64,000 nt of DNA from Candidatus Saccharimonadales bacterium (GCA_025449905.1 JANWIN010000012.1:109318-173317), one strand, 5' to 3'. Numbered from the stretch's first letter, positions 2,287 through 54,609 are shown. The notes: generated by a model from the sequence alone, not told the origin. Numbers and translations: made by a program.

Positions 2287-3564
2287 ATGTACAATATCGT
2301 CATGCAGCAGGTAAACAATTTTTCTGAGGTTCATGAGGTTTTAGCTGGCTTTGTACCGCCGGCGCGTTCAATGCGGGCCAAATACAGCTTGGAAAGAATG
2401 CTCAAACTTATGGACGAATTGGGCAATCCGCAGGAGAGTTTTAAGACTATCCATGTGGCCGGCACGTCGGGGAAGACTTCAACCTGCTATTACATTGCCG
2501 CGCTTCTAGGAGCAACTGGTAAAAAAATTGGCGTGACCGTCTCGCCGCATATTGATGAAGTTAATGAGCGTCTGCAAATAAACCTGACCCCCCTGTCCGA
2601 ACAAGAATTTTGCCAAGAGCTGAATGAATTTCTAAAAATACTTAACAGGTTAAGCGTTAAGCCAACTTACTTTGAGCTATTAATAGCTTTTGCTTATTGG
2701 CAGTTCGCTAAACAAAAAGTTGACTATGCCGTCATTGAGGTTGGTCTGGGCGGCCTGCTGGATGGCACCAATGTTATTAATCGAGCTGATAAAGTTTGTG
2801 TTATTACTGATATCGGGCTAGATCATACCAGCGTACTGGGGAACACTGTAGAAAAAATAGCCGCTCAAAAAGCCGGCATCATACAATCCAAGAATCAAGT
2901 AATTATGAACGCCCAAGACCCGGAAATAATGACAGTGATAAAACAAAGGCAAGGTGAAAAACAAGCTAGTCTAATAATAGTTGAGACCGACGAAGCAATT
3001 ACGCAAAACGATATGCCGTGGTTTCAGCATAGAAATTGGCAGTTAGCCTATGCGGTTTATAAGTACGTCAGCAATCGCGATGGTTTGGAGGACTTAGATA
3101 CTAACCAAATTAATAAAGCTATGAAGACCTATATTCCGGCGCGGATGGAAATTGTTAATAAAAACGGACAGACCATCATTATGGACGGCGCCCATAACCC
3201 GCAGAAAGTTGGCGCACTAGTGCGCAGTCTGCAAAGTAAGTTTCCTAATCAAAAAATGCAGGTCGTGATGGGTTTGTTGAGCGACAAAGAAGTAAAAGGA
3301 GTTCTTGAACAGCTAAAACCAGTTACTAAATCTTTATATGCAACTTATTTTGATGCCGAACAAGATATGCCGCGCTCGGCAATCCAGCCAGCTGAAATAG
3401 CCGAGGCGGCGAAAGCGCTAGGCATTGAGGCTTTAGAAATTAAAGAGCCGGAAAAAGCATTTAAGGAGTCTCTTAAGACAAACGATTCGGTGTTGGTCGT
3501 TGGTTCATTTTTCTTGCTCAATCACATCAGACCAATACTTAAGCGTGATAACCTATTAGTATGA
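2287..3564 (+). CDS. folC: folylpolyglutamate synthase / dihydrofolate synthase (Mur-ligase family)
   Basis: P-loop HVAGTSGKTST, Mur-ligase central and C-terminal regions (DGAHNP), and a typical length. It overlaps the downstream DHFR gene by 4 nt. Confidence 0.85.
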   Translation: MYNIVMQQVNNFSEVHEVLAGFVPPARSMRAKYSLERMLKLMDELGNPQESFKTIHVAGTSGKTSTCYYIAALLGATGKKIGVTVSPHIDEVNERLQINLTPLSEQEFCQELNEFLKILNRLSVKPTYFELLIAFAYWQFAKQKVDYAVIEVGLGGLLDGTNVINRADKVCVITDIGLDHTSVLGNTVEKIAAQKAGIIQSKNQVIMNAQDPEIMTVIKQRQGEKQASLIIVETDEAITQNDMPWFQHRNWQLAYAVYKYVSNRDGLEDLDTNQINKAMKTYIPARMEIVNKNGQTIIMDGAHNPQKVGALVRSLQSKFPNQKMQVVMGLLSDKEVKGVLEQLKPVTKSLYATYFDAEQDMPRSAIQPAEIAEAAKALGIEALEIKEPEKAFKESLKTNDSVLVVGSFFLLNHIRPILKRDNLLV

Positions 3565-4063: not shown

Positions 4064-4798
4064 ATGCTAAATTTATTCGGTTCAGGAATTAAGTATAAAA
4101 TCTCCAGTTTTACAATCGGGCTAGCTACATTAGTTTTTACAGCTGGTGTAGCCATGGCTCAAGGTCAATATGTTAGGGGATCTACGGGCGTTGACGTTAG
4201 TTATCCTAACTGCAGCCAAAAAATTCCAAAAGTTGTTTTTGGAATAGTTGGCGTCAATGGTGGGCTAAATTTTTCCAAGAACCCGTGTTTGGCCAGCCAA
4301 TCTGCAAATTTTAAAAATCTAAGCTTGTATGTCAATACGGGCTACCCAGGTCAAAGCTACGGCTTGAAATATCAAAATTCTCCCAAAATCTGTTCAGGCT
4401 CAGACTTAAATTGCTTGGCTTACAATTACGGTTATAACGCTGGTCTTTATTCGGTCAATTATGCCAATAGCCTAAATGTACGAAGTTCGACTTGGTGGTT
4501 AGATGTTGAGAATGTTAACAGTTGGACCAATGATCCTCAGCAAAACCGTAATAGCCTGCAAGGCCAATACGAAGCAATAATTGCTTCGGGGGCCAGCACT
4601 GTTGGAGCCTACAGCACTACTGCCCAGTGGAATAGCATTACCGGGACCTGGCGCAATAATTGGCCGTCTTGGGGTGCCACTACTTGGACTACCGCCAAAC
4701 AAGCTTCAAAATATTGTACGGGACATGAATTTACTGGCGGTCCTTCTTATCTAATGCAATACAAGCCACGCGGCATCGACCAGGACTACGCCTGTTAA
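4064..4798 (+). CDS. secreted protein, possible GH25/DUF1906-like glycoside hydrolase fold
   Basis: It has a signal-like N-terminus. GVDVSYPNC and WWLDVE resemble the GIDVS...LDxE pattern of GH25-type TIM barrels. The assignment is tentative. Confidence 0.45.
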   Translation: MLNLFGSGIKYKISSFTIGLATLVFTAGVAMAQGQYVRGSTGVDVSYPNCSQKIPKVVFGIVGVNGGLNFSKNPCLASQSANFKNLSLYVNTGYPGQSYGLKYQNSPKICSGSDLNCLAYNYGYNAGLYSVNYANSLNVRSSTWWLDVENVNSWTNDPQQNRNSLQGQYEAIIASGASTVGAYSTTAQWNSITGTWRNNWPSWGATTWTTAKQASKYCTGHEFTGGPSYLMQYKPRGIDQDYAC

Positions 4799-5033: not shown

Positions 5034-5080
5034 AGTTGTAAAAACAGGGGTAATTTGCTAAAGTCCTCAGGAGTTTGACT

Positions 5081-5253
5081 GCCAGACAGTTTGGCTTTAG
5101 GCTAATGCTAGGAAAGCCTTTATTTGAGAGGTTGGGTGTATTTATATACATCTAGCCGACAAAATAAAGAAGCTTGACACAGCAGTAGCCAAAGAGCACA
5201 AACAGAATTTCTAAGTCTGTTAGAGAGCAGGTTTGTGTGGCCAAACTGTCTGG
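5081..5253 (+). other. 173-bp unit bounded by a perfect 14-bp inverted repeat; candidate structured ncRNA or MITE-like insert abutting tRNA-Lys
   Basis: CCAGACAGTTTGGC (5081-5094) is the exact reverse complement of GCCAAACTGTCTGG (5240-5253). Nested internal hairpins are present, for example cacaaacaga...tctgtt...gtttgtgtg. There is no ORF. Confidence 0.3.
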
Positions 5254-5330
5254 GGGCCCATAGCTCAGCTGGTTAGAGCACCTGCCTCTTAAGCAGGGTG
5301 TCGAGGGTTCGAGTCCCTCTGGGCCCTCCA
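5254..5330 (+). tRNA. tRNA-Lys (anticodon CTT), CCA encoded
   Basis: Cloverleaf read by hand: acceptor GGGCCCA/TGGGCCC, D-arm GCTC-AGCTGGTTA-GAGC, anticodon arm CCTGC-CTCTTAA-GCAGG, T-arm GAGGG-TTCGAGT-CCCTC. Confidence 0.95.
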
Positions 5331-24424: not shown

Positions 24425-26563
24425 GTGTTAGACAAGGTTTTAGTTGACTTAAACCCAGAGCAAAAACGGGCGGTTGAAACTACCAACGGCCCATTATTAA
24501 TTTTGGCTGGCGCTGGCAGCGGCAAAACCAAAACACTAACCCACCGCATTGCTTTCATACTTATTAAAAAATTAGCTCGCCCGGAAGAGATTTTATCAGT
24601 AACCTTTACTAACAAAGCAGCCCAAGAAATGCGGGCTCGTATTGCCAAGTTATTGGGTCAAAATTCCAACAATCGGGCTTTTATGCCGTTCATGGGCACC
24701 TTCCACAGCATTTGTGTACGACTTTTACGCCAAGATGGTGAGCACATTGGCGTACCTCGCAACTTTGTTATTTTTGATGAGCAAGACAGACTAAGCGCCA
24801 TCAAACAAGCCAGCAAAGAGTTGCAAATTGATGAAAAGAGTTTTCCGCCCAGGGTTATTGCTTCAATTATTAGTAGCGCTAAAAATGAACTATTAACTGC
24901 AGTTGAAACGAACGAAATGGCCAGTGGCCCCGCTAATAAAATTGCTGCGCAGATTCATCCAGTTTATGAGCGCATTTTAAAACAGGCTCACGGCTTGGAC
25001 TTTGATGATTTGATTGGCCGCACCGTCAGCTTGCTGCAAACCACCCCAGCCATAAAGGACAAATGGCGCAGTCAATTTAAATTCGTAATGATTGACGAGT
25101 ATCAAGACACCAACGCCGCCCAGTATCAACTAATAAAACTCCTAACTGCTAAACACAAAAACTTAGCAGTAGTCGGTGATGATTGGCAAAGTATTTACTC
25201 TTGGCGTGGCGCTGATTTTAGAAACATTTTAAATTTTGAAAAAGATTATCCAAAGTGCGCTGTAATTAAGTTAGAGCAAAACTACCGCAGCACTAAACAT
25301 ATTTTAGAGGCCGCCCATGGCGTGATTACCAAAAACACCAAGCGCTCTAATAAAAATTTGTGGACTGAAAGTAAGGGCGGCCTGCCGGTTCAGCTTCTTA
25401 ATGTTATGAGCGAGCGCAGCGAAGGCGAAGCGATTGTTCGGCGGATCCAATCCGGCTTGGACAGCGGCCGGCATTACCGCGAATTTGCAGTCTTGTATCG
25501 TACCAATGCCCAAAGCCGCAGCTTAGAGGAGACTCTGCTAAAACGCGGCATCCCATACCGCATTGTAGGTGGTGTCCGTTTTTATGACCGCGCTGAAATC
25601 AAAGATATACTGGCCTACCTGCGTTTGCTGTATCAACCAGAAGACACCATAAGTTTTGAACGAATTGTTAATGTACCAACGCGCGGCATCGGCAATACTT
25701 CACTAAACAAATTTCAGCAGTGGCGTTCTTCAAATAAATTAGGACTTGAAGCTGGTCTGGCCCAAGTGCCAAGTTGTGATAGCCTAACAACAAAAGCCAA
25801 AAACGGCTTGTTTGAACTTGGCGAGCTGCTTAGTTCGATGCGCAAGGTTGCCAAAGACGCCAGCGTGCCTGGTCTGCTGGATTCGCTAATACGTCGATTG
25901 GATTATTACAAGTATCTAGACGATGGCACGCCAAAAGGTGAATCTCGCCAAGAAAATGTTAAGGAACTTATAAGCGTGGCCAAAGAGTATAACGAACTTG
26001 GGCTGAACGGCTTCTTAGAAGAAGTGGCGCTAATTAGCGATATAGAAAATAACCGCAATGATCTAAACGATTTAGTAACACTTATGACTTTGCACGCCGC
26101 TAAGGGCTTGGAATTTCCAGTAATTTTTATGGTGGGCATGGAAGAAACAATCTTTCCGCACTCACGGGCACTCTATGACCAGGGCGAGATGGAAGAGGAG
26201 CGGCGTCTATGCTACGTGGGCATGACTAGGGCAAAGCAGGAACTTTACCTGATTGCCGCCAGCAGCCGGATGCTTTACGGCGGATTGCAGCACAATCCAC
26301 CGTCGCGCTTTTTATCAGATATCGAAAACCTCAAGGTCGAATCTGAAGATTTTTATGCTGCGCCTCAAGCTGGCCTTGACTTAGATATAGACCAGTCCGA
26401 AGTTCACTACCTTCCCGAACTAAACGCTGGCGATCGAGTTAAACATAAATTGTTTGGCGAGGGGATAGTCAGTGAAATCAGTGGCGATGAGGCGGTTATA
26501 AATTTTAAGAAGAAGGGCTTCAAAAAATTAAATGTAGCCTTCGCGCCCTTAGAGCGAATCTGA
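24425..26563 (+). CDS. pcrA: ATP-dependent DNA helicase PcrA/UvrD (SF1)
   Basis: Walker A AGAGSGKT, DEYQDTN, YRSTKHIL and TLHAAKGLEF helicase motifs. GTG start. Confidence 0.9.
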   Translation: MLDKVLVDLNPEQKRAVETTNGPLLILAGAGSGKTKTLTHRIAFILIKKLARPEEILSVTFTNKAAQEMRARIAKLLGQNSNNRAFMPFMGTFHSICVRLLRQDGEHIGVPRNFVIFDEQDRLSAIKQASKELQIDEKSFPPRVIASIISSAKNELLTAVETNEMASGPANKIAAQIHPVYERILKQAHGLDFDDLIGRTVSLLQTTPAIKDKWRSQFKFVMIDEYQDTNAAQYQLIKLLTAKHKNLAVVGDDWQSIYSWRGADFRNILNFEKDYPKCAVIKLEQNYRSTKHILEAAHGVITKNTKRSNKNLWTESKGGLPVQLLNVMSERSEGEAIVRRIQSGLDSGRHYREFAVLYRTNAQSRSLEETLLKRGIPYRIVGGVRFYDRAEIKDILAYLRLLYQPEDTISFERIVNVPTRGIGNTSLNKFQQWRSSNKLGLEAGLAQVPSCDSLTTKAKNGLFELGELLSSMRKVAKDASVPGLLDSLIRRLDYYKYLDDGTPKGESRQENVKELISVAKEYNELGLNGFLEEVALISDIENNRNDLNDLVTLMTLHAAKGLEFPVIFMVGMEETIFPHSRALYDQGEMEEERRLCYVGMTRAKQELYLIAASSRMLYGGLQHNPPSRFLSDIENLKVESEDFYAAPQAGLDLDIDQSEVHYLPELNAGDRVKHKLFGEGIVSEISGDEAVINFKKKGFKKLNVAFAPLERI

Positions 26564-26581: not shown

Positions 26582-27823
26582 ATGAAATTCAAAAAACAAG
26601 CCCGACAGTATAAAAAAGAAGCTAAAGATTACGCTCGGATGCAAAAACGCCGAGCTCGCAATATTCAGGGCCACCCGTTTGTTGTCCCGGTACTAACTTT
26701 TTTGTTTTTGTTTTTCGTATCAATGATAGCTTTTATTGGCCTTAACGCTCAAACCATCGGTGCTGGTGATGCCCATGTTGTTCAGTTTTCCATCGACGGC
26801 GAAAAACAAGTTCTACCGACCCGGGCCAGCACGGTTGGCAAATTGCTAAATCGTCTTGAAATAAAAGTTGGCAAGCATGATGTTATCGAGCCGCCGCTGG
26901 ACACGCCGATTTTAGAAGATAATTTCAAAATCAATCTTTACCGCGCCAAGCCGGTGATTGTAGTCGAGGGCAAAAAAGAAGTTTCAATGCTAACAGCCAT
27001 AACTAGTCCCAAAAATGTTGTGACTAAAGCCGGTTTTAAATTATTTCCTGAAGATAGAGTGGTCTTAGCCAGTGCTGATGACGTTTTAAACGAAGGCGTT
27101 ATTGGGCACAAAATTATTATTGAGCATGCCACGCCTGTAAAACTAAATCTTTTTGGGCGCATGCTTAGTCTTAGAACCCATTCTAAAACTGCTCGAGAAC
27201 TTTTAAAAGAACGCGGCGTAGACGTCTCGGGAGTTAATGTCTTTCCTTCTATCAGTGCAAATCTAAAAAAAAATTCGGTGGTGTTTGTGACCAAACCGGG
27301 AATTGTTGTTAAATTCCAAGAAGTTAGTCTGCCGTTTGGCCAAAGTTTTGTTGATGATTATAGTCTGCCCTACGGCGTCACCAAAGTACGCAGCGCCGGT
27401 GAAAATGGTAAAAAGGTAATTGTATTTTCGGCACCAAAAAAGCATCCTGAACAAAAACACAAGCTTCAAGAAGTTTTGGTTAGTAGGCCGGTAAACGCGG
27501 TTATCGCCCGCGGGCGCCGCATCAATACTTCAAGTGTTTCTGGCGATCGGGCCGCTTTAATGGCCGCCGCCGGCATTTCATCTGGCGATTATTACGCCGT
27601 TGACTTTATTATTAGTCACGAATCCGGCTGGCGTCCTGGCGCTCTTAGCGGTAGTGGCTGCGCAGGGCTGGGCCAGGCTTGCCCGGGCTCAAAAGTTATA
27701 AGTGCTTGCCCTAACTGGTCTAACAATGCTGTTTGCCAGCTGCGCTTCTTTAGCGGTTATGCCCAGAGGTATGGGGGATGGCAGCAGGCGTATTTTGTGT
27801 GGCAAAATCAGGGCTGGTGGTGA
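26582..27823 (+). CDS. DUF348/G5-domain cell-wall protein with C-terminal transglycosylase-like domain
   Basis: An N-terminal TM is followed by DUF348-like repeats and a G5-like region (VRSAGENGKKV). The C-terminal ISHESGWRPGA...GLGQ...GWW resembles the Apf/SLT-like muralytic domain. Confidence 0.7.
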   Translation: MKFKKQARQYKKEAKDYARMQKRRARNIQGHPFVVPVLTFLFLFFVSMIAFIGLNAQTIGAGDAHVVQFSIDGEKQVLPTRASTVGKLLNRLEIKVGKHDVIEPPLDTPILEDNFKINLYRAKPVIVVEGKKEVSMLTAITSPKNVVTKAGFKLFPEDRVVLASADDVLNEGVIGHKIIIEHATPVKLNLFGRMLSLRTHSKTARELLKERGVDVSGVNVFPSISANLKKNSVVFVTKPGIVVKFQEVSLPFGQSFVDDYSLPYGVTKVRSAGENGKKVIVFSAPKKHPEQKHKLQEVLVSRPVNAVIARGRRINTSSVSGDRAALMAAAGISSGDYYAVDFIISHESGWRPGALSGSGCAGLGQACPGSKVISACPNWSNNAVCQLRFFSGYAQRYGGWQQAYFVWQNQGWW

Positions 27824-27838
27824 TCTGAGCAATGTGAC

Positions 27839-27881
27839 GTGCTGACCTGTTTTCGGGCAGAGCCCGAAACTCTGTCAGCAC
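27839..27881 (+). terminator. two-tier hairpin after the G5 gene (terminator candidate without U-tract)
   Basis: GTGCTGAC-ctgt-TTTCGGGC-aga-GCCCGAAA-ctct-GTCAGCAC. Confidence 0.45.
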
Positions 27882-27982
27882 TCTTGACGAATCGCTGTGT
27901 CAGTAACGCTCTGTCGCTCAGTCATCGTATTGGAATACGATTCCTTCGTTCCTCGCTACTTCCTAGCGCTTCATCCAAGCAC
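27881..27982 (+). repeat. copy A of the ~103-nt intergenic element family
   Basis: Alignable by eye with 42917-43019 and 53208-53310. Shared blocks are TCTTG(G/A)C, GC.G.GT, the hairpin ATCGTATT-gg-AATACGAT, TTCG..CTCG, CCTAGCGC, and C(A/C)(C/-)TC(C/A)AAG. Confidence 0.6.
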
Positions 27983-28019
27983 ATCGCTCAGGCGCCCCAT
28001 AGGGTACAATTAGCTCACA

Positions 28020-28832
28020 ATGGAAGATTTAGTAGCTAAGAAGTCGTTGGGGCAGCACTGGTTAACAGATAGCAACACCTTAGAGGCTATGTGTGATGCT
28101 GCCGCTGTTGTGACAGGGGACAATATTCTGGAAATAGGGCCGGGAAGGGGGTCTTTGACTGCTTCCCTATTAAGTCGCGGGGCAAAAGTGGTGGCGGTTG
28201 AATTAGATGAGCGTTTAGCGACTGATTTAAAGCGTAAATTTAAAGATCAACCCTTCACACTTAACATGTTAAGTATTATAGATTATGATTTATCCTCAAT
28301 GCCAGCTGATTATAAAATTGTTGCCAATATCCCTTATTATTTGACCAATCACCTGCTCCGCCTGCTGGTTGACACTTCCGCCCAGCCGCTTCAAGCCGCG
28401 CTTTTAGTTCAAAAAGAAGTCGCCGAGCGCGTCGTGGCAAAGCCAGGGGAGATGTCAATTGTCGCTGTGGCTGTTCAGCTTTTTTATAAACCAAGTCTTG
28501 GGCGCATTGTGCCGGCCCAACTGTTTGAGCCGCCGCCAAAAGTCGATTCACAAATTCTAATGCTCAAAAGGCGAAAACAACCACTGTTTGACGACACAGA
28601 AACCGATAAATTTATGAGAATAGTTAAAGCCGGCTTTAGCGCCAAACGCAAAAAACTACGCAGCAGCTTGGCTGGTGGCTTAAGAATCACAAAGCCCGAA
28701 GCTGAAAAATTATTACAAAAGGCAAAGATTGATCCCAACCAGCGTGCCCAGGAACTGACGCTGAATAACTGGCACGACCTCTACAAAATTGTACAACTTA
28801 GTGACGATCGTCAATATCTTGTACAATTTTAA
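28020..28832 (+). CDS. rsmA: 16S rRNA (adenine1518/1519-N6)-dimethyltransferase
   Basis: KSLGQHWL, the SAM motif LEIGPGRGSLT, and NIPYY. There is no SD. A TACAAT box at 28005-28010 lies 9 nt upstream of the ATG. Confidence 0.9.
   Translation: MEDLVAKKSLGQHWLTDSNTLEAMCDAAAVVTGDNILEIGPGRGSLTASLLSRGAKVVAVELDERLATDLKRKFKDQPFTLNMLSIIDYDLSSMPADYKIVANIPYYLTNHLLRLLVDTSAQPLQAALLVQKEVAERVVAKPGEMSIVAVAVQLFYKPSLGRIVPAQLFEPPPKVDSQILMLKRRKQPLFDDTETDKFMRIVKAGFSAKRKKLRSSLAGGLRITKPEAEKLLQKAKIDPNQRAQELTLNNWHDLYKIVQLSDDRQYLVQF
28787..28828 (+). repeat. 42-nt nested palindromic element, copy 1 (inside the rsmA 3' end)
   Basis: AATTGTACAA-ctta-GTGACGATCGTCA-atatc-TTGTACAATT. It is 37/42 identical to 47135-47176. 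Confidence 0.7.
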
Positions 28833-42510: not shown

Positions 42511-42859
42511 TAAAATTATTTCGCAAAATCTAGAGAGAAAACGAACAAAGCTCTACCAAGCATATCTGAAGACCGAAGCTAAAGCTGGCGGCTATTTATT
42601 TGGCCAAGTACCACGAGGGATTCAACGAGAATTTTACTGCTTAGATGAGCAGAATTGGGTATGGCGCGAGCGCTGGTTGGACATGGACGGCCAAGTTCAG
42701 GTACACACCACCGAGTATCTTATTAAACAGGACGGCATCTTTAAATCTGAAAATAAAGCAGACTACCAGCGCGTAAGTAAAGATGAAGCCGAAAGTCTTT
42801 ACGATGCGGCTAAAGCGTACGAACAGACAATTGGCCAAGAAATCTACAACTTCGTCTAG
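42491..42859 (+). CDS. hypothetical protein
   Basis: From the ORF track only (122 aa, Trp/Tyr-rich). Confidence 0.45.
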   Translation: MFKKPFDKIISQNLERKRTKLYQAYLKTEAKAGGYLFGQVPRGIQREFYCLDEQNWVWRERWLDMDGQVQVHTTEYLIKQDGIFKSENKADYQRVSKDEAESLYDAAKAYEQTIGQEIYNFV

Positions 42860-42916
42860 AGAATTGTCGTCGCACGTAAACCTGCCAAATAGTAAAGCTA
42901 TTTGCACTGTTTCCTG

Positions 42917-43019
42917 CTCTTGGCGGACTGCGGTGTTGCAGGCTCCACTACTCGTTCATCGTATTTTATATACGACTCGCTCCGTTGCTCACCTGCGCCT
43001 TGCATTCCACTCAAGCGCC
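42917..43019 (+). repeat. copy B of the ~103-nt intergenic element family
   Basis: Alignable with copies A and C. The hairpin is TCGTAT-tttat-ATACGA. A TAAAAT box at 43039-43044 lies 10 nt upstream of the ATG at 43055. Confidence 0.6.
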
Positions 43020-43054
43020 AATCCTATAGATAGATTGCTAAAATAGGAAAGATA

Positions 43055-44200
43055 ATGGGAAAAATAATATATCTTGATCACGCTGCAGCTACTCCGGTTG
43101 ATCCGCGGGTTATGGCAGTAATGCAGCCGTATTTTTCTGAGGATTTTTATAATCCCTCAGCTATTTACTTAGCGGCTAAAAAAGTAAAAAAAGATATAGA
43201 AGCCTCCCGAGCTAAAGTTGCTGCTTGGATGGGTGCTCGCCCCAGTGAAATAACTTTTACGGCTGGCGGTACTGAGGCTAACAACCTGGCAATTAAAGGC
43301 GTCATGAGCCAGTTTCTGGCTGCAAACATTGTTATTAGCGAAATTGAGCATGAATCTGTCTTAAAACCGGCTCAGCAGCATAAATATAAAGTTGTTGGCG
43401 TAAAGCAGGATGGCTTAATTGATTTAGATAAGCTCGAGGCGTCAATAGACAGCAAAACGGTCCTAGTTAGTGTCATGCTGGCCAACAATGAAATTGGCAC
43501 GATTCAGCCCATCCGCAAAATCGGCCAACTGCTGGAAAAGCTAAGACAAGAACGTCTAACTAAAGGCAATAAAACCCCACTCTATTTTCACACCGATGCC
43601 TGCCAAGCCGCTAATTATATTGACTTGCACGCTAATCGCTTGGGGGTGGATTTGATGACAATTAACGGGGGTAAAATCTATGGCCCAAAACAGAGCGGCG
43701 CACTATTTATCAGAACCGGTACTAATTTAAAGCCGCAGATCTTGGGTGGCGGGCAAGAATCAGGTGTTAGATCTGGCACCGAAAATGTTGCCGGAATAAT
43801 TGGTTTGTCAAAAGCTCTGGATTTAGTACAGAAAAACCACCACGTCGAAACAGTTCGTTTGCAAAAATTGCAGCAACTCTTTTTTGAGCTTATTAATAAA
43901 CAAATGCCTCCTGCCCAAATTGTCGGCTCAGTCAAAAATCGGTTACCCAACAATGTCCATATCACTATTGCTGGCCAAGATAACGAACGACTAATTATGG
44001 AGCTCGATGAGCGTGGCGTTTTGTGTGCCGCCGGTTCAGCCTGCAGTGCCAGCAACGAAGATCCTTCACATGTACTTAAAGCCATCGGCTTATCAGATGA
44101 AGAGGCCCAAAGCTCACTGCGCTTTACTATGGGCCAAAGTACCACTGAATCTGATGTTAAACAGACCGTAAAAACTCTGGCTGGACTCGTTAATGGCTAA
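43055..44200 (+). CDS. cysteine desulfurase (NifS/IscS class V aminotransferase)
   Basis: YLDHAATTP, TSGGTE-like FTAGGTEANN, a PLP-Lys region, and the active-site loop GSACSA. Confidence 0.85.
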   Translation: MGKIIYLDHAAATPVDPRVMAVMQPYFSEDFYNPSAIYLAAKKVKKDIEASRAKVAAWMGARPSEITFTAGGTEANNLAIKGVMSQFLAANIVISEIEHESVLKPAQQHKYKVVGVKQDGLIDLDKLEASIDSKTVLVSVMLANNEIGTIQPIRKIGQLLEKLRQERLTKGNKTPLYFHTDACQAANYIDLHANRLGVDLMTINGGKIYGPKQSGALFIRTGTNLKPQILGGGQESGVRSGTENVAGIIGLSKALDLVQKNHHVETVRLQKLQQLFFELINKQMPPAQIVGSVKNRLPNNVHITIAGQDNERLIMELDERGVLCAAGSACSASNEDPSHVLKAIGLSDEEAQSSLRFTMGQSTTESDVKQTVKTLAGLVNG

Positions 44201-47129: not shown

Positions 47130-47134
47130 TCTGA

Positions 47135-47176
47135 AATTGTACAACTTTGTGACGATCGTCACGATTATGTACAATT
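47135..47176 (+). repeat. 42-nt nested palindromic element, copy 2 (5 nt after the alaS stop)
   Basis: AATTGTACA-acttt-GTGACGATCGTCAC-gatta-TGTACAATT. It is 37/42 identical to 28787-28828. Confidence 0.7.
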
Positions 47177-47216
47177 TGGCTGGTGCGAAAACAGTAAAAG
47201 CGTTATTATTTAGATC

Positions 47217-51992: not shown

Positions 51993-53153
51993 GTGTTGTC
52001 TTTGTTACTATTTATCGGACTCACCACCAGTGGTGAGCAGGAGAAGTATATTCGTACCTCATCAAGAACTATCAATCAGTTAGCTCAAGATAAGTTACAA
52101 GCTCAATCCGATCAGTACAAACGCTTAAGTAAGCGTATTTTTAAACAGTACAAAAAAAGAATTGTTCGCTATAGCGTTCTAGCGGCCAACGCCGCCTTGT
52201 TAGTATTAGTTTTAGTAGTGGTCCATTCGCCAGATACAGGCCAGTCAATTGCTAAATCGGCAGTTTCAGCTAGCAGCTCAGATACAGTCAATGCCGTAGA
52301 TCAATTGTCTTCAGCCGATATTGCCGTAAACGTTGCCAAGATGACCAATCTGGCAGAATCAACTTCGGTAGCTAATAATGCCGACAGTGTTAATATACGT
52401 CTGGCTTTAGCAAATTCTAGCGAAACTGTTATTGGCAAGCCGCAGGTTATTAGCACCGATATTAAGTCGCGTAGTGATATCCAGACCTACGTTGTTCAAA
52501 GCGGCGACACGATTAGCTCATTGGCCTCTAAGTTTAACGTTACCTCCGACACACTGCGCTGGTCTAACGCCATTTCCGGCGACAGCTTAGAGCCCGGTAG
52601 TGTGCTAAGGGTTTTGCCCGGTGTAAATGGCATTATTTATCTGGTTCGCGGCGGTGATACGCCAGAATCTTTGGCCAGCCGTTTCCAGGTTAGCAAAGAC
52701 ATCATCATTGCTTATAACGATGCCGAAGTCGGCGGCCTGCCGGTAGGCGGCTATATTATTATTCCTGGCGGCACGCCGGCCATAGTCGGCACACCGGCAA
52801 GCAGTAATACGGTAGCTGGCTTTACGCCGAGCTATGGTTATAACGGCTATGATTACGGTTGGTGTACTTGGTACGTAGCTTCTAAGATTTCAGTACCAAC
52901 TAACTGGGGCAATGCCAATACTTGGAGCGTTTATGCGCCATCTAGCGGCTGGTCTGTCAGCCAGGCCCCTCGAGCAGGCGGTATTGGCCAGACAACTGGC
53001 GGTTGGGCTGGTCACGTTGCTTATATCGAAGCCGTGTCTCCAGATGGCAGTATGGTTAAATTCTCTGATATGAACGGTTTAGCTGGCTGGGGTCGAGTTG
53101 GTAGAAGCGACTGGGTGCCGGCTTCACACTTCGACAACTACATCTACCGCTAG
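51993..53153 (+). CDS. peptidoglycan hydrolase with two LysM domains and a C-terminal CHAP domain
   Basis: LysM repeats YVVQSGDTISSLASKFNV and YLVRGGDTPESLASRFQV. CHAP Cys context WCTWYV and His context GHVAYIE. GTG start in the track. Confidence 0.8.
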   Translation: MLSLLLFIGLTTSGEQEKYIRTSSRTINQLAQDKLQAQSDQYKRLSKRIFKQYKKRIVRYSVLAANAALLVLVLVVVHSPDTGQSIAKSAVSASSSDTVNAVDQLSSADIAVNVAKMTNLAESTSVANNADSVNIRLALANSSETVIGKPQVISTDIKSRSDIQTYVVQSGDTISSLASKFNVTSDTLRWSNAISGDSLEPGSVLRVLPGVNGIIYLVRGGDTPESLASRFQVSKDIIIAYNDAEVGGLPVGGYIIIPGGTPAIVGTPASSNTVAGFTPSYGYNGYDYGWCTWYVASKISVPTNWGNANTWSVYAPSSGWSVSQAPRAGGIGQTTGGWAGHVAYIEAVSPDGSMVKFSDMNGLAGWGRVGRSDWVPASHFDNYIYR

Positions 53154-53166
53154 AAGCTATGTAACA

Positions 53167-53207
53167 TTCTAGCCTGCTCCTGAGCAGAACTCAGGATTCT
53201 GCTAGAA
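53167..53207 (+). terminator. two-tier hairpin after the LysM-CHAP gene (terminator candidate without U-tract)
   Basis: TTCTAGC...CCTGAG-cagaa-CTCAGG...GCTAGAA. Confidence 0.45.
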
Positions 53208-53310
53208 TTCTTGGCACGCTGCGTTGTTAACTTCCTGTGCGACTCAATCACCGTATTTCATATACGGCTCTTTCGCTACTCGTTGTTTCCTAGCAGCGCA
53301 CTCAAGTACA
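53208..53310 (+). repeat. copy C of the ~103-nt intergenic element family
   Basis: Alignable with copies A and B. The hairpin CCGTAT-ttcat-ATACGG carries compensatory T>C and A>G changes. A TATAAT box at 53330-53335 lies 11 nt upstream of the ATG at 53347. Confidence 0.6.
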
Positions 53311-53346
53311 TAACTTCTAGTATTTCGCATATAATTATAACTAGAG

Positions 53347-54609
53347 ATGTTTGTAGACACTGTAAAAATAAAGCTTGAGGCTGGCAAAGGTGGTGATGGC
53401 GCAGTTAGTTTTCGGCATGAAAAATATGTTGACCGCGGCGGACCGGATGGTGGTGATGGCGGTAGGGGTGGCGATATTATCCTAGAGGCCAGCCGTAATC
53501 AAAACACGCTGGCAGCTTTTCGGCATAAGAAATTATTAAAAGCTCAAGATGGCCAAACTGGCAGTAAGGTAAAGCGTCATGGCAAAAGCGGCCAGAATTT
53601 AATCGTACCCGTGCCGATTGGAACGGTGGCAATTGATAAAACCGGCAAGGTTTTAGCTGATCTAACAAACGATAACCAACAAACGGTAATTGCTAACGGC
53701 GGACAGGGTGGTTTTGGCAATGCTCACTTTGTGTCATCGCGCCGTCAAGCTCCACGCATAGCTGAAAATGGTGAGAAGGGTGACAAGCTGGAAGTTAGCT
53801 TGGAGCTTAAATTAATAGCTGATGTGGGCATTGTTGGCCTGCCAAATGCCGGTAAAAGCACCCTGCTGTCAGTAATTAGTCATGCTCGGCCGGAAATCGC
53901 CGATTATCCATTTACAACTCTAGCGCCTAACTTGGGGATGGTTGATATTGATAAAAAAACCAGCCTGTTATTTGCAGATATCCCCGGATTGATTGCCGGC
54001 GCTAGCCACGGCAAGGGTTTGGGCGATGAATTTTTACGGCACGTTGAGCGCACTAGTGTACTGGTGCACTTAATCGATGTTTATGAGAACGTCACCAGGG
54101 CTTACAAAATAATTCAAAAAGAATTGAAGGATTACAAAATCGACTTGTCCAAGCGGCCGCAAATTATCGCGCTTACCAAAACCGAGGGCCTAAATAAAAA
54201 GGAGATTAGTGCCGTGACTCGTGAGCTAAAGCCGTTTTTACCCAAGAAGACTCCACTACTGGCTATTTCTGCCCAGAGCCACGAAAATCTGGACAAACTG
54301 CTTTATAAAGCCAAAGAACTGGTAGCCAAACACAAAGTCGCCAAACCCAAACAAGGCAAGAAGAAATTGCCGGTGTTGCGTCTACCTCGCAGCCTAGATT
54401 CTTGGAAGGTTGTGAGGCGGGGCGATAAATATATAATTTCTGGTCGCAAGATTGAGCGCTTTGCAGAGCGGACGGATTTTGATAATCCCGAAGCCGTTGC
54501 CAGGTTGAGGAATATTATAAAAAAAATGGGTATTGCTCACGAACTAATCAGGCAAGGCATCAAATCTAACGAAACGATTGTAATTGGTAAGAGCAGCCTC
54601 AAATGGTAG
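53347..54609 (+). CDS. obgE: GTPase ObgE/CgtA
   Basis: Obg fold MFVDTVKIKLEAGKGGDG with Gly-rich repeats, G1 GLPNAGKST, G3 DIPGL, and a C-terminal OCT-like domain. Confidence 0.9.
   Translation: MFVDTVKIKLEAGKGGDGAVSFRHEKYVDRGGPDGGDGGRGGDIILEASRNQNTLAAFRHKKLLKAQDGQTGSKVKRHGKSGQNLIVPVPIGTVAIDKTGKVLADLTNDNQQTVIANGGQGGFGNAHFVSSRRQAPRIAENGEKGDKLEVSLELKLIADVGIVGLPNAGKSTLLSVISHARPEIADYPFTTLAPNLGMVDIDKKTSLLFADIPGLIAGASHGKGLGDEFLRHVERTSVLVHLIDVYENVTRAYKIIQKELKDYKIDLSKRPQIIALTKTEGLNKKEISAVTRELKPFLPKKTPLLAISAQSHENLDKLLYKAKELVAKHKVAKPKQGKKKLPVLRLPRSLDSWKVVRRGDKYIISGRKIERFAERTDFDNPEAVARLRNIIKKMGIAHELIRQGIKSNETIVIGKSSLKW

Follow-up and report, generated by a model that had tools for sequence, protein, structure and literature searches.

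The window, as we call the whole 64,000-nt stretch analysed here, belongs to Candidatus Saccharimonadales bacterium (GCA_025449905.1 JANWIN010000012.1:109318-173317). On its + strand, a gene for a LysM+CHAP protein is followed by obgE, both recognised by Pfam, and a palindromic element, designated copy C, lies between the stop codon of the former and the −10 box of the latter, as located by the covariance model (CM) described below, by alignments and by element-free orthologous spacers. The full unit spans 172 nt (53151-53322, +; CM score of 135.7 bits over model positions 1-172) and is composed of three helices, P1, P2 and P3, all given here on the + strand. The outer stem, P1, is formed by the 5′ arm CTAGAAGCTATGTA (53150-53163), which pairs at 13 of 14 positions with the 3′ arm TACATAACTTCTAG (53307-53320), and the TAG stop codon of LysM-CHAP (53151-53153) is contained in the 5′ arm. 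P2 is a two-tier hairpin (53167-53207) with an outer tier TTCTAGC/GCTAGAA, an inner tier TCCTGAG/CTCAGGA and a conserved CCTGC internal loop. According to the folds, the alignment and the pair count, P3 is a long imperfect hairpin (53208-53306) with a conserved pyrimidine-rich internal loop and an apical hairpin at 53251-53267, made up of CCGTAT (53251-53256), the loop TTCAT and ATACGG (53262-53267); in the same helix CGCTGC (53217-53222) stands opposite GCAGCG (53293-53298).

These sequences had been read correctly in an initial annotation of the region, which described a repeat of about 103 nt. The repeat exists, and the length has to be revised: that hairpin is the P3 core of a palindromic element of about 170 nt that also includes the two-tier hairpin and the outer stem. 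Likewise, the two-tier hairpin was well placed at 53167-53207, but it is not a separate terminator of the LysM-CHAP gene, since it is P2 and covaries in all full-length copies (14 of 14 pairs changed on both sides across copies). The TATAAT −10 box of obgE (53330-53335, +) is outside the element, is conserved in relatives (L050-L064) and lies 11 nt before the ATG (53347), with no Shine-Dalgarno sequence, just as had been noted.

The CM detects four copies of the element in the window. Copies A and B had already been reported by their cores (27878-27985 and 42917-43022), both with TCGTAT...ATACGA, and extend over 27824-27995 (+, 139.9 bits) and 42857-43031 (+, 142.4 bits). According to Pfam, copy A is flanked by a DUF348/G5 gene (TGA stop at 27821-27823) and rsmA (ATG at 28020), and copy B by a 122-aa ORF (TAG stop at 42857-42859, within P1) and a class-V aminotransferase gene (ATG at 43055). 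The fourth one, copy D, was missing from the earlier list. It is a diverged copy on the minus strand (5079-5253; 61.6 bits, E 3e-13; outside the seed alignment) that has kept a perfect P1 of 13 bp (5084-5096 with 5240-5252) and has a decayed apical hairpin, and it abuts tRNA-Lys (5254-5330), ending 1 nt away from it. The four copies are only about 65% alike, and at this identity A and B were missed by a repeat search; they were recovered by permissive blastn and an nhmmer profile, and the nhmmer E-values of the window repeat (1e-26 to 1e-29) place it far above chance. When A, B and C were aligned with their flanks, P2 differed in sequence and kept the same shape. On the minus strand, GAGCCGUAU has some likeness to domain V of group II introns, which we take to be coincidental, as its stem has 6 bp and it has neither the bulge nor the length of domain V.

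Two further repeats were observed in the window. The 16-bp perfect palindrome ACTTAACATGTTAAGT has 5 occurrences at up to 2 mismatches (at 2640, 9021, 28259, 28852, and 45110, mostly inside ORFs) and 6 at up to 3 mismatches, against 0.46 expected; its possible roles include those of an operator, of a site related to methylation or restriction, and of an uptake-type motif. A 44-nt two-tier palindrome, AAATTGTACAA..GTGACGATCGTCA..TTGTACAATTT, is located at 28786-28829 and 47134-47177 (89% identity), in both cases just after a gene end, and the first one is directly followed by the palindrome ACTTGACATGTTAAGT. The two occurrences may belong to another family of small intergenic repeats, or they may share a function as terminator or operator.

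The distribution of the element was studied by scanning one genome per GTDB species with a pattern of the core (CGTATTN{2,4}ATACGRYTCN{1,2}TYCGYTNCTC). The scan gave 48 loci in about 45 genomes, nearly all of them Saccharibacteria/Saccharimonadales MAGs; the remaining loci came from a few other Patescibacteria and from a few MAGs with doubtful labels. The aligned copies are 166-176 nt long and have the organisation of copy C, that is, an outer P1 stem of 13-15 bp, a two-tier P2, in which the CCTGC internal loop is conserved and the apical region is of the GCAGAGC type, and a long imperfect P3, which carries the apical CCGTAT hairpin and whose pyrimidine-rich internal loop is highly conserved. 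The RNAalifold structure of 35 full-length copies contained 49 pairs, 41 of which changed on both sides, and the structure is thereby strongly supported. The fraction of cells paired was 89.1%, compared with 65.0% in column-shuffled alignments and 29-39% when the partners were slid by 1-3 columns, and the covariation score was 0.678, compared with 0.232 and 0.10-0.145, respectively; none of 500 shuffles reached the observed value of either quantity. The apical pair whose compensatory exchange had first been pointed out in the initial annotation was C-G in 24 of the 35 copies, U-A in 6, U-G in 1 and unpaired in 4. The rest of the apical stem was fixed by the search pattern and is uninformative in this set, and its covariation is seen in copies outside the pattern selection (CCGTAC..GTACGG in L033, GCTGTAC..GTACAGC in L056). 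A CM built from the 35 copies matched 58 times in the loci, besides the four in the window, with 2-4 copies in single 8-kb loci (e.g., L033 and L021). It was also noted that the apical motif is invariant across distant species.

No Rfam 15 family matched anywhere in the window at the gathering thresholds, and none matched copy C or a well-conserved copy at E≤10. Blastn against phage genomes gave no match to the element, and no viral contig matched the pattern. In the literature that we searched, no paper was found that related palindromic elements, MITEs or insertions resembling the Rickettsia palindromic elements (RPEs) to Saccharibacteria or Patescibacteria. As a separate observation, a core consisting of P3 alone occurs in low-GC Patescibacteria MAGs, some of them labelled Gammaproteobacteria (L025, L040, L011, and L012). 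In L025 it forms a tandem array (2670-3239) of 4.4 units of 130 nt with 97% identity, and in L040 (7745-8000) there are two units 120 nt apart.

We also examined which molecule folds. If selection acted on the RNA of one strand, G·U would be expected to be far better tolerated than A·C. When all pairs were counted, there were 60 mismatches of the G·T/T·G type and 59 of the A·C/C·A type (two columns alternating between G-C and G-U were set aside). The corresponding counts were 24 and 20 in the in-gene copies, for which the mRNA strand is known, 8 and 12 in the copies just downstream of a co-directional gene, 28 and 27 in the other intergenic copies, and 14 and 12 in seven fpg orthologues described below. 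Moreover, the opposite strand folds at least as well as that of copy C, with single-sequence z-scores of −2.9 to −4.6 versus −0.5 to −3.4 and an alignment fold of −42.7 versus −30.2 kcal/mol. An assignment of the structure to one RNA strand is not borne out. The mismatch pattern suggests that G·T and A·C are both transient intermediates, and because it is symmetric we infer, from modest counts, that the constraint acts on DNA, as a hairpin or cruciform, or on both strands.

Orthologous sites with and without the element were then compared. The CHAP-obgE synteny is conserved in at least 12 Saccharibacteria contigs in which the spacer is only 43-105 nt long and has no element, so a link of the element to obgE or to 5′ leaders does not hold; elsewhere it is found in either orientation relative to its neighbours and in coding genes. 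These short spacers usually contain a small hairpin with a T-run, and after it (TGn)TATAAT is found 8-12 nt upstream of the ATG. Since they keep the TATAAT without having the element, copy C is an insertion into a short spacer and the TATAAT is obgE's own. The only relative with an element at CHAP-obgE is L056 (2277-2442), where it is placed directly after the CHAP stop codon and upstream of obgE. That copy is of the other P3 subfamily (TTTTCGG.../...CGAGAAA type) and is probably an independent insertion at the same spot as copy C, which suggests a preferred insertion spot.

Filled and empty sites were also found within genes. The UvrD of the window (24425-26563), 49% identical to that of L010, does not have the insert of about 50 aa present in the latter. 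The three closest relatives of a filled Fpg (75-84% identity) read ...VILTF-KDGRR-LFFND, while the filled protein reads ...VIIEF-YPKK[V SRGMG...AAHGPR]LFFND. At the DNA level, the filled fpg sites exceed the empty ones by 168, 171 or 174 nt, always a multiple of three, and the extra DNA is the whole element, with both P1 arms included. Therefore, the possibility that the P1 arms come from the target, as a pre-existing palindrome or an inverted duplication of the flank, was rejected as a general rule, leaving aside one pair of copies in L033 described below. No target-site duplication was seen at the filled and empty fpg sites, and no direct repeats flanking P1 were consistent across copies.

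In 13 loci, all in relatives and none within the window itself, the element resides in frame within a long ORF, always antisense to the + orientation of copy C. More than 10 gene families are involved: CysRS (insert just before GFPGWHIECSAM), the FGAM synthase PurL (two different sites), UvrD/PcrA, the NAD-dependent DNA ligase LigA, a RluD-type pseudouridine synthase, DinB, exonuclease III (Xth), MsrA, Fpg, Jag and a NYN-domain protein. The antisense translation in a fixed frame gives a conserved peptide of about 57 aa, ..LDAVQGAGEQRTEPY..YGEGAAQ.ATQQSAKS...A.SA.QQAGA.., also written as ..QG.GEQRTEPY..YGEGAAQ..TQQ.AKS.., which was found in many proteins. This frame was open in 12/12 in-gene copies and in only 4/23 intergenic ones (stops interrupt the other 19, including all four of the window), which means that the in-gene copies are under selection for translatability. 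An exhaustive search with a peptide HMM retrieved 241 representative proteins; it was used instead of a word-indexed profile search, which collected few candidates and gave only 4 short ORFs. Most of the matches were ORFans of 50-100 aa on intergenic copies, and such hypothetical proteins (P0001-P0153 among the database matches) are probably gene-caller artefacts. About 30 longer proteins had an internal match, among them PrmC, Dus, a DNA methylase and FolD, in which the insert is located between the two domains. In the AlphaFold model of Fpg, which is too weak (mean pLDDT of 57) for a reliable placement, the insert lies between two strands with a pLDDT of about 30. The element in genes would be read through as a hydrophilic, probably disordered loop of about 57 aa.

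The history of the insertions could be followed at some of these sites. The fpg insert is common to seven species, with 60-88% identity among their Fpg proteins; the CM gave each of these inserts a score of 125-160 bits and found no match in the relative with the empty site. Its divergence follows that of the host gene (Spearman 0.62, p 0.003), which indicates vertical inheritance of one old insertion that was lost in one subclade. Among the seven orthologues, 26/49 pairs underwent compensatory double changes and 296/343 cells were Watson-Crick, and five compensated double changes were counted in an orthologous intergenic pair (L006/L032). Compensatory changes among orthologous inserts mean that pairing is maintained in place, even within coding sequence. 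Gene conversion was considered as the process that keeps the pairing and discarded, given that copies within a genome are not homogenised (A-D are about 65% identical, and the two copies of L079 differ). If the insertion were dead and purely selfish, such maintenance within genes would not be expected, and a function of some sort is thereby indicated.

There are also signs of recent duplication. Two copies of one MAG (L026 and L048) with different flanks are about 93% identical to the last base of P1 and diverge from there on, which indicates a recent duplication and marks the 3′ boundary of the element. The low identity among the window copies, on the other hand, indicates that these are old, and they may no longer move. 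The loci inspected showed neither a transposase nor a target-site duplication nor terminal sequences conserved between copies, and mobility is consequently deduced only from the distribution.

Several regularities were noted in the placement of the element. At least 10 copies in the + orientation have the stop codon of a co-directional upstream gene between −5 and 0 relative to the position where the element starts; A, B and C each follow a stop codon directly, in sense orientation and with an offset between −3 and 0, a placement which also fits a role at transcript 3′ ends. In B, C and one of the L033 copies, this stop codon takes part in the pairing of P1. CTAG is present at both ends of C and of the L056 copy, and CTAG or TA at both ends of only some copies. 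In copy D and in L002, the element lies right against the 5′ end of a tRNA gene. Finally, the two L033 copies mentioned above (a, 2254-2426; b, 4466-4638; 2.2 kb apart) are nearly identical in P2, P3 and inner P1, and yet the outer arms of P1 are not the same in both, although in each copy they can pair with one another (CCTCCCGCAC/GTGCGGGAGG in a and ATGCTTTCCGCAC/GTGCGAAATGCAT in b), a pattern that, from the sequences, simple copy-paste would not explain. These stop-codon, tRNA and L033 patterns may reflect a target preference, the shortening of spacers as the genome is streamlined or the way in which the element inserts.

Taking into account all of the above, we consider it likely that copy C is an RPE-like, non-autonomous palindromic insertion element that is widespread in Saccharibacteria. 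The element has three helices and no ORF of its own, with a P3-only core variant in other Patescibacteria, and it occupies the few places that a compact genome tolerates: short spacers directly after stop codons, positions adjacent to tRNA genes and the interior of housekeeping genes, where a single orientation and a single frame are used. What matters would be the folding of the DNA, or of both strands, as the absence of strand asymmetry in the mismatches suggests. Its invariant apical region (CTCCTTCACCGTAT-loop-ATACGGCTCNGTCCGYTNCTC; also given as CTCCTTCACCGTAT-loop-ATACGGCTCNGTCCG) is a candidate site for protein recognition, and a putative protein recognising the apical loop and hairpin may move or maintain the element. 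At obgE, copy C was inserted between the LysM-CHAP stop codon and the native short-leader promoter, which consists of a −10 box only, and a large hairpin replaces the small terminator hairpin of relatives.

A more daring formulation, which we put forward only tentatively, is that the three helices constitute a DNA module under purifying selection at each locus, even in essential genes, whose apex is recognised by a conserved protein. If this were true, the module would be either a long-term genomic symbiont of the REPIN/RAYT kind or a structural site used by the host, living inside ORFs, and protein-coding palindromes would have originated independently and convergently in a second lineage of reduced-genome symbionts.

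Among the alternatives to an RPE-like insertion, the one that survives best, although we regard it as improbable, is a domesticated DNA-structure module analogous to REP/REPIN-RAYT, in which selection would keep each copy because a host protein (for instance a nucleoid protein, a topoisomerase or a HUH-type protein) binds the hairpin or cruciform, with slow spread and mainly vertical inheritance. The fpg orthologues, which keep pairing through compensatory changes and co-diverge with the host, are in line with this idea, as are the five compensated double changes in L006/L032, the symmetry between G·T and A·C and the invariance of the apical motif across distant species. However, REP/REPIN sequences are strictly extragenic and carry GTAG/CGTC tags, whereas the element is untagged and enters ORFs; neither RAYT nor any other partner gene was found in the loci examined, and many related genomes have no copies at the matching sites.

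The second alternative is a signal for transcript 3′ ends, original or co-opted, acting as a terminator without U-tract, an RNase processing site or an mRNA-stabilising hairpin of the upstream gene, and the element would then stand in for the small intrinsic terminator of relatives. The stop codons at the start of at least ten + copies and the pairing maintained in place would agree with it, and so would the fact that relatives have a hairpin with a T-run in the CHAP-obgE spacer and the window does not. Against this, no U-tract follows the element and no strand-specific wobble signature is seen; in addition, copies occur in reverse orientation, at the 5′ ends of tRNA genes and within genes, where termination would be lethal. 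We therefore find this explanation rather unlikely. In the window, no terminator-like site was found in 53050-53450 and no U-tract follows copy C. An effect of copy C on read-through into obgE is possible, and a terminator or insulator effect on this gene, if any, would be secondary.

The third one, a cis-regulatory RNA of the leader or riboswitch type that would sense a signal within the 5′ UTR of obgE, rsmA and the aminotransferase gene and thereby control the gene downstream, is largely refuted, and we assign it a very low probability. Its attraction came from copies A-C, each lying upstream of a gene in sense orientation and ending 24-28 nt before the ATG, and from the strong covariation and the conserved internal loop. 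But the downstream genes vary by locus and the orientation to neighbours is mixed, thirteen copies lie within ORFs on the antisense strand, orthologous obgE leaders do not have the element, no excess of G·U is detected on the + strand and Rfam gives no match. Furthermore, since the native −10 box of obgE lies downstream of the element, a transcript started there would exclude it. A role of copy C as a regulatory RNA of obgE is not supported, and for the window this removes a candidate obgE riboswitch or leader. Least probable of all is that the functional unit is the peptide of about 57 aa, a mobile protein module for which the DNA palindrome would be incidental: it is conserved in many proteins, but most copies are intergenic, stops interrupt the frame in 19/23 of these (including all four in the window), the nucleotide pairing covaries independently of coding, and the peptide is predicted as coil, with a pLDDT of about 30 in a weak model.

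With regard to promoters, no full sigma-70 promoter was found around copy C. An outward promoter carried by the element was also considered and rejected, because there is no conservation in the 3′ flanks and because relatives show that the −10 box belongs to obgE itself. Independently of the element, the arrangement (TGn)TATAAT located 8-12 nt before the obgE ATG, without a Shine-Dalgarno sequence, was observed in many Saccharibacteria (L050-L064), and a similar layout is present in the window at obgE (53330-53346), rsmA (28004-28019) and the aminotransferase gene (43038-43054). This layout suggests leaderless or very short-leader mRNAs.

We also compared the RPE-like element with systems already described. 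Cis-regulatory RNAs are characterised by a fixed position and orientation to coherent genes and by a strand-specific pairing signature, which the element does not display, and copy C does not have the GC-rich hairpin followed by a U-tract of intrinsic terminators. MITEs such as Correia/NEMIS, ERIC, RUP and QMITE are similar in size, in their terminal inverted repeats and in their occasional in-frame fusion with genes (PMC10969869, PMC2229807). In MITEs, the termini are conserved among copies and flanked by target-site duplications, and the parent IS is often known. In contrast, the P1 arms of the element vary between copies while staying complementary, and no target-site duplication was seen. 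REPs are sequences of 20-40 nt, extragenic, with GTAG or CGTC tags (PMC3733652). The element resembles REP/REPIN in forming hairpins, in being kept for a long time and in conserving structure more than sequence, and REPs are also thought to act as DNA; it differs in its size (about 170 nt), its branched fold, its presence in ORFs, the lack of a GTAG/CGTC tag in the consensus and the lack of RAYT in the loci examined.

The closest likeness is to RPEs (RPE-1 to RPE-8/10; Ogata et al. 2000, 2002, as summarised in PMC10969869 and PMC2229807). RPEs are repeats of 105-150 bp with long stem-loops and terminal inverted repeats of about 12 bp, for which target-site duplication is uncertain and TA is found at the termini only sometimes; they are located between genes and also in frame within many unrelated conserved genes, to which they add a conserved peptide (PMC10969869, PMC2229807). 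In R. bellii, 53 of 526 RPE copies are in genes (PMC1458961). The Rickettsia enzyme Gmk has reportedly been assayed in forms with the insert and lacking it. Like them, the element is short (166-176 bp) and dispersed, forms a long stem-loop with terminal inverted repeats, some of them with TA at the termini, and is both intergenic, with several copies per genome, and in frame in unrelated conserved genes, where it contributes a conserved peptide. Neither a transposase nor a clear target-site duplication is known for either, the element is present or absent at orthologous sites (the obgE spacer, UvrD and Fpg), and its hosts have reduced genomes and a symbiotic lifestyle. Unlike RPEs, it belongs to Patescibacteria/Saccharibacteria, adopts a branched three-helix fold with a strictly conserved apical loop and hairpin, and has copies that abut tRNA genes, although none was seen in an RNA gene. 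The pairing kept in place by compensatory changes within a coding gene was not found stated for RPEs in the literature searched. By analogy of behaviour, the element and RPEs would thus be of the same kind and not of the same family; homology is not expected, taking into account the different phylum and the distinct consensus.

Considered in this way, the element adds to the known protein-coding palindromic repeats a second group of symbionts with reduced genomes, unrelated to the first, with no earlier description in the literature searched and no Rfam match. Until now, repeats of this class have been regarded as particular to Rickettsia, apart from a second case in Wolbachia, another symbiont of reduced genome, in which they are reportedly described by Ogata et al. 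in 2005 (cited in PMC2229807). Coding palindromes may then be a general outcome of compact symbiont genomes. The family would also explain hundreds of hypothetical proteins of 50-100 aa and the insertions of about 57 aa in housekeeping proteins of the candidate phyla radiation (CPR), and such insertions and ORFans affect annotation, phylogenomic alignments and structure prediction. Beyond the likeness to RPEs, the family offers a tractable case in which pairing within coding sequence is kept by compensatory change with no strand bias, and in which it can be asked what keeps palindromes folded.
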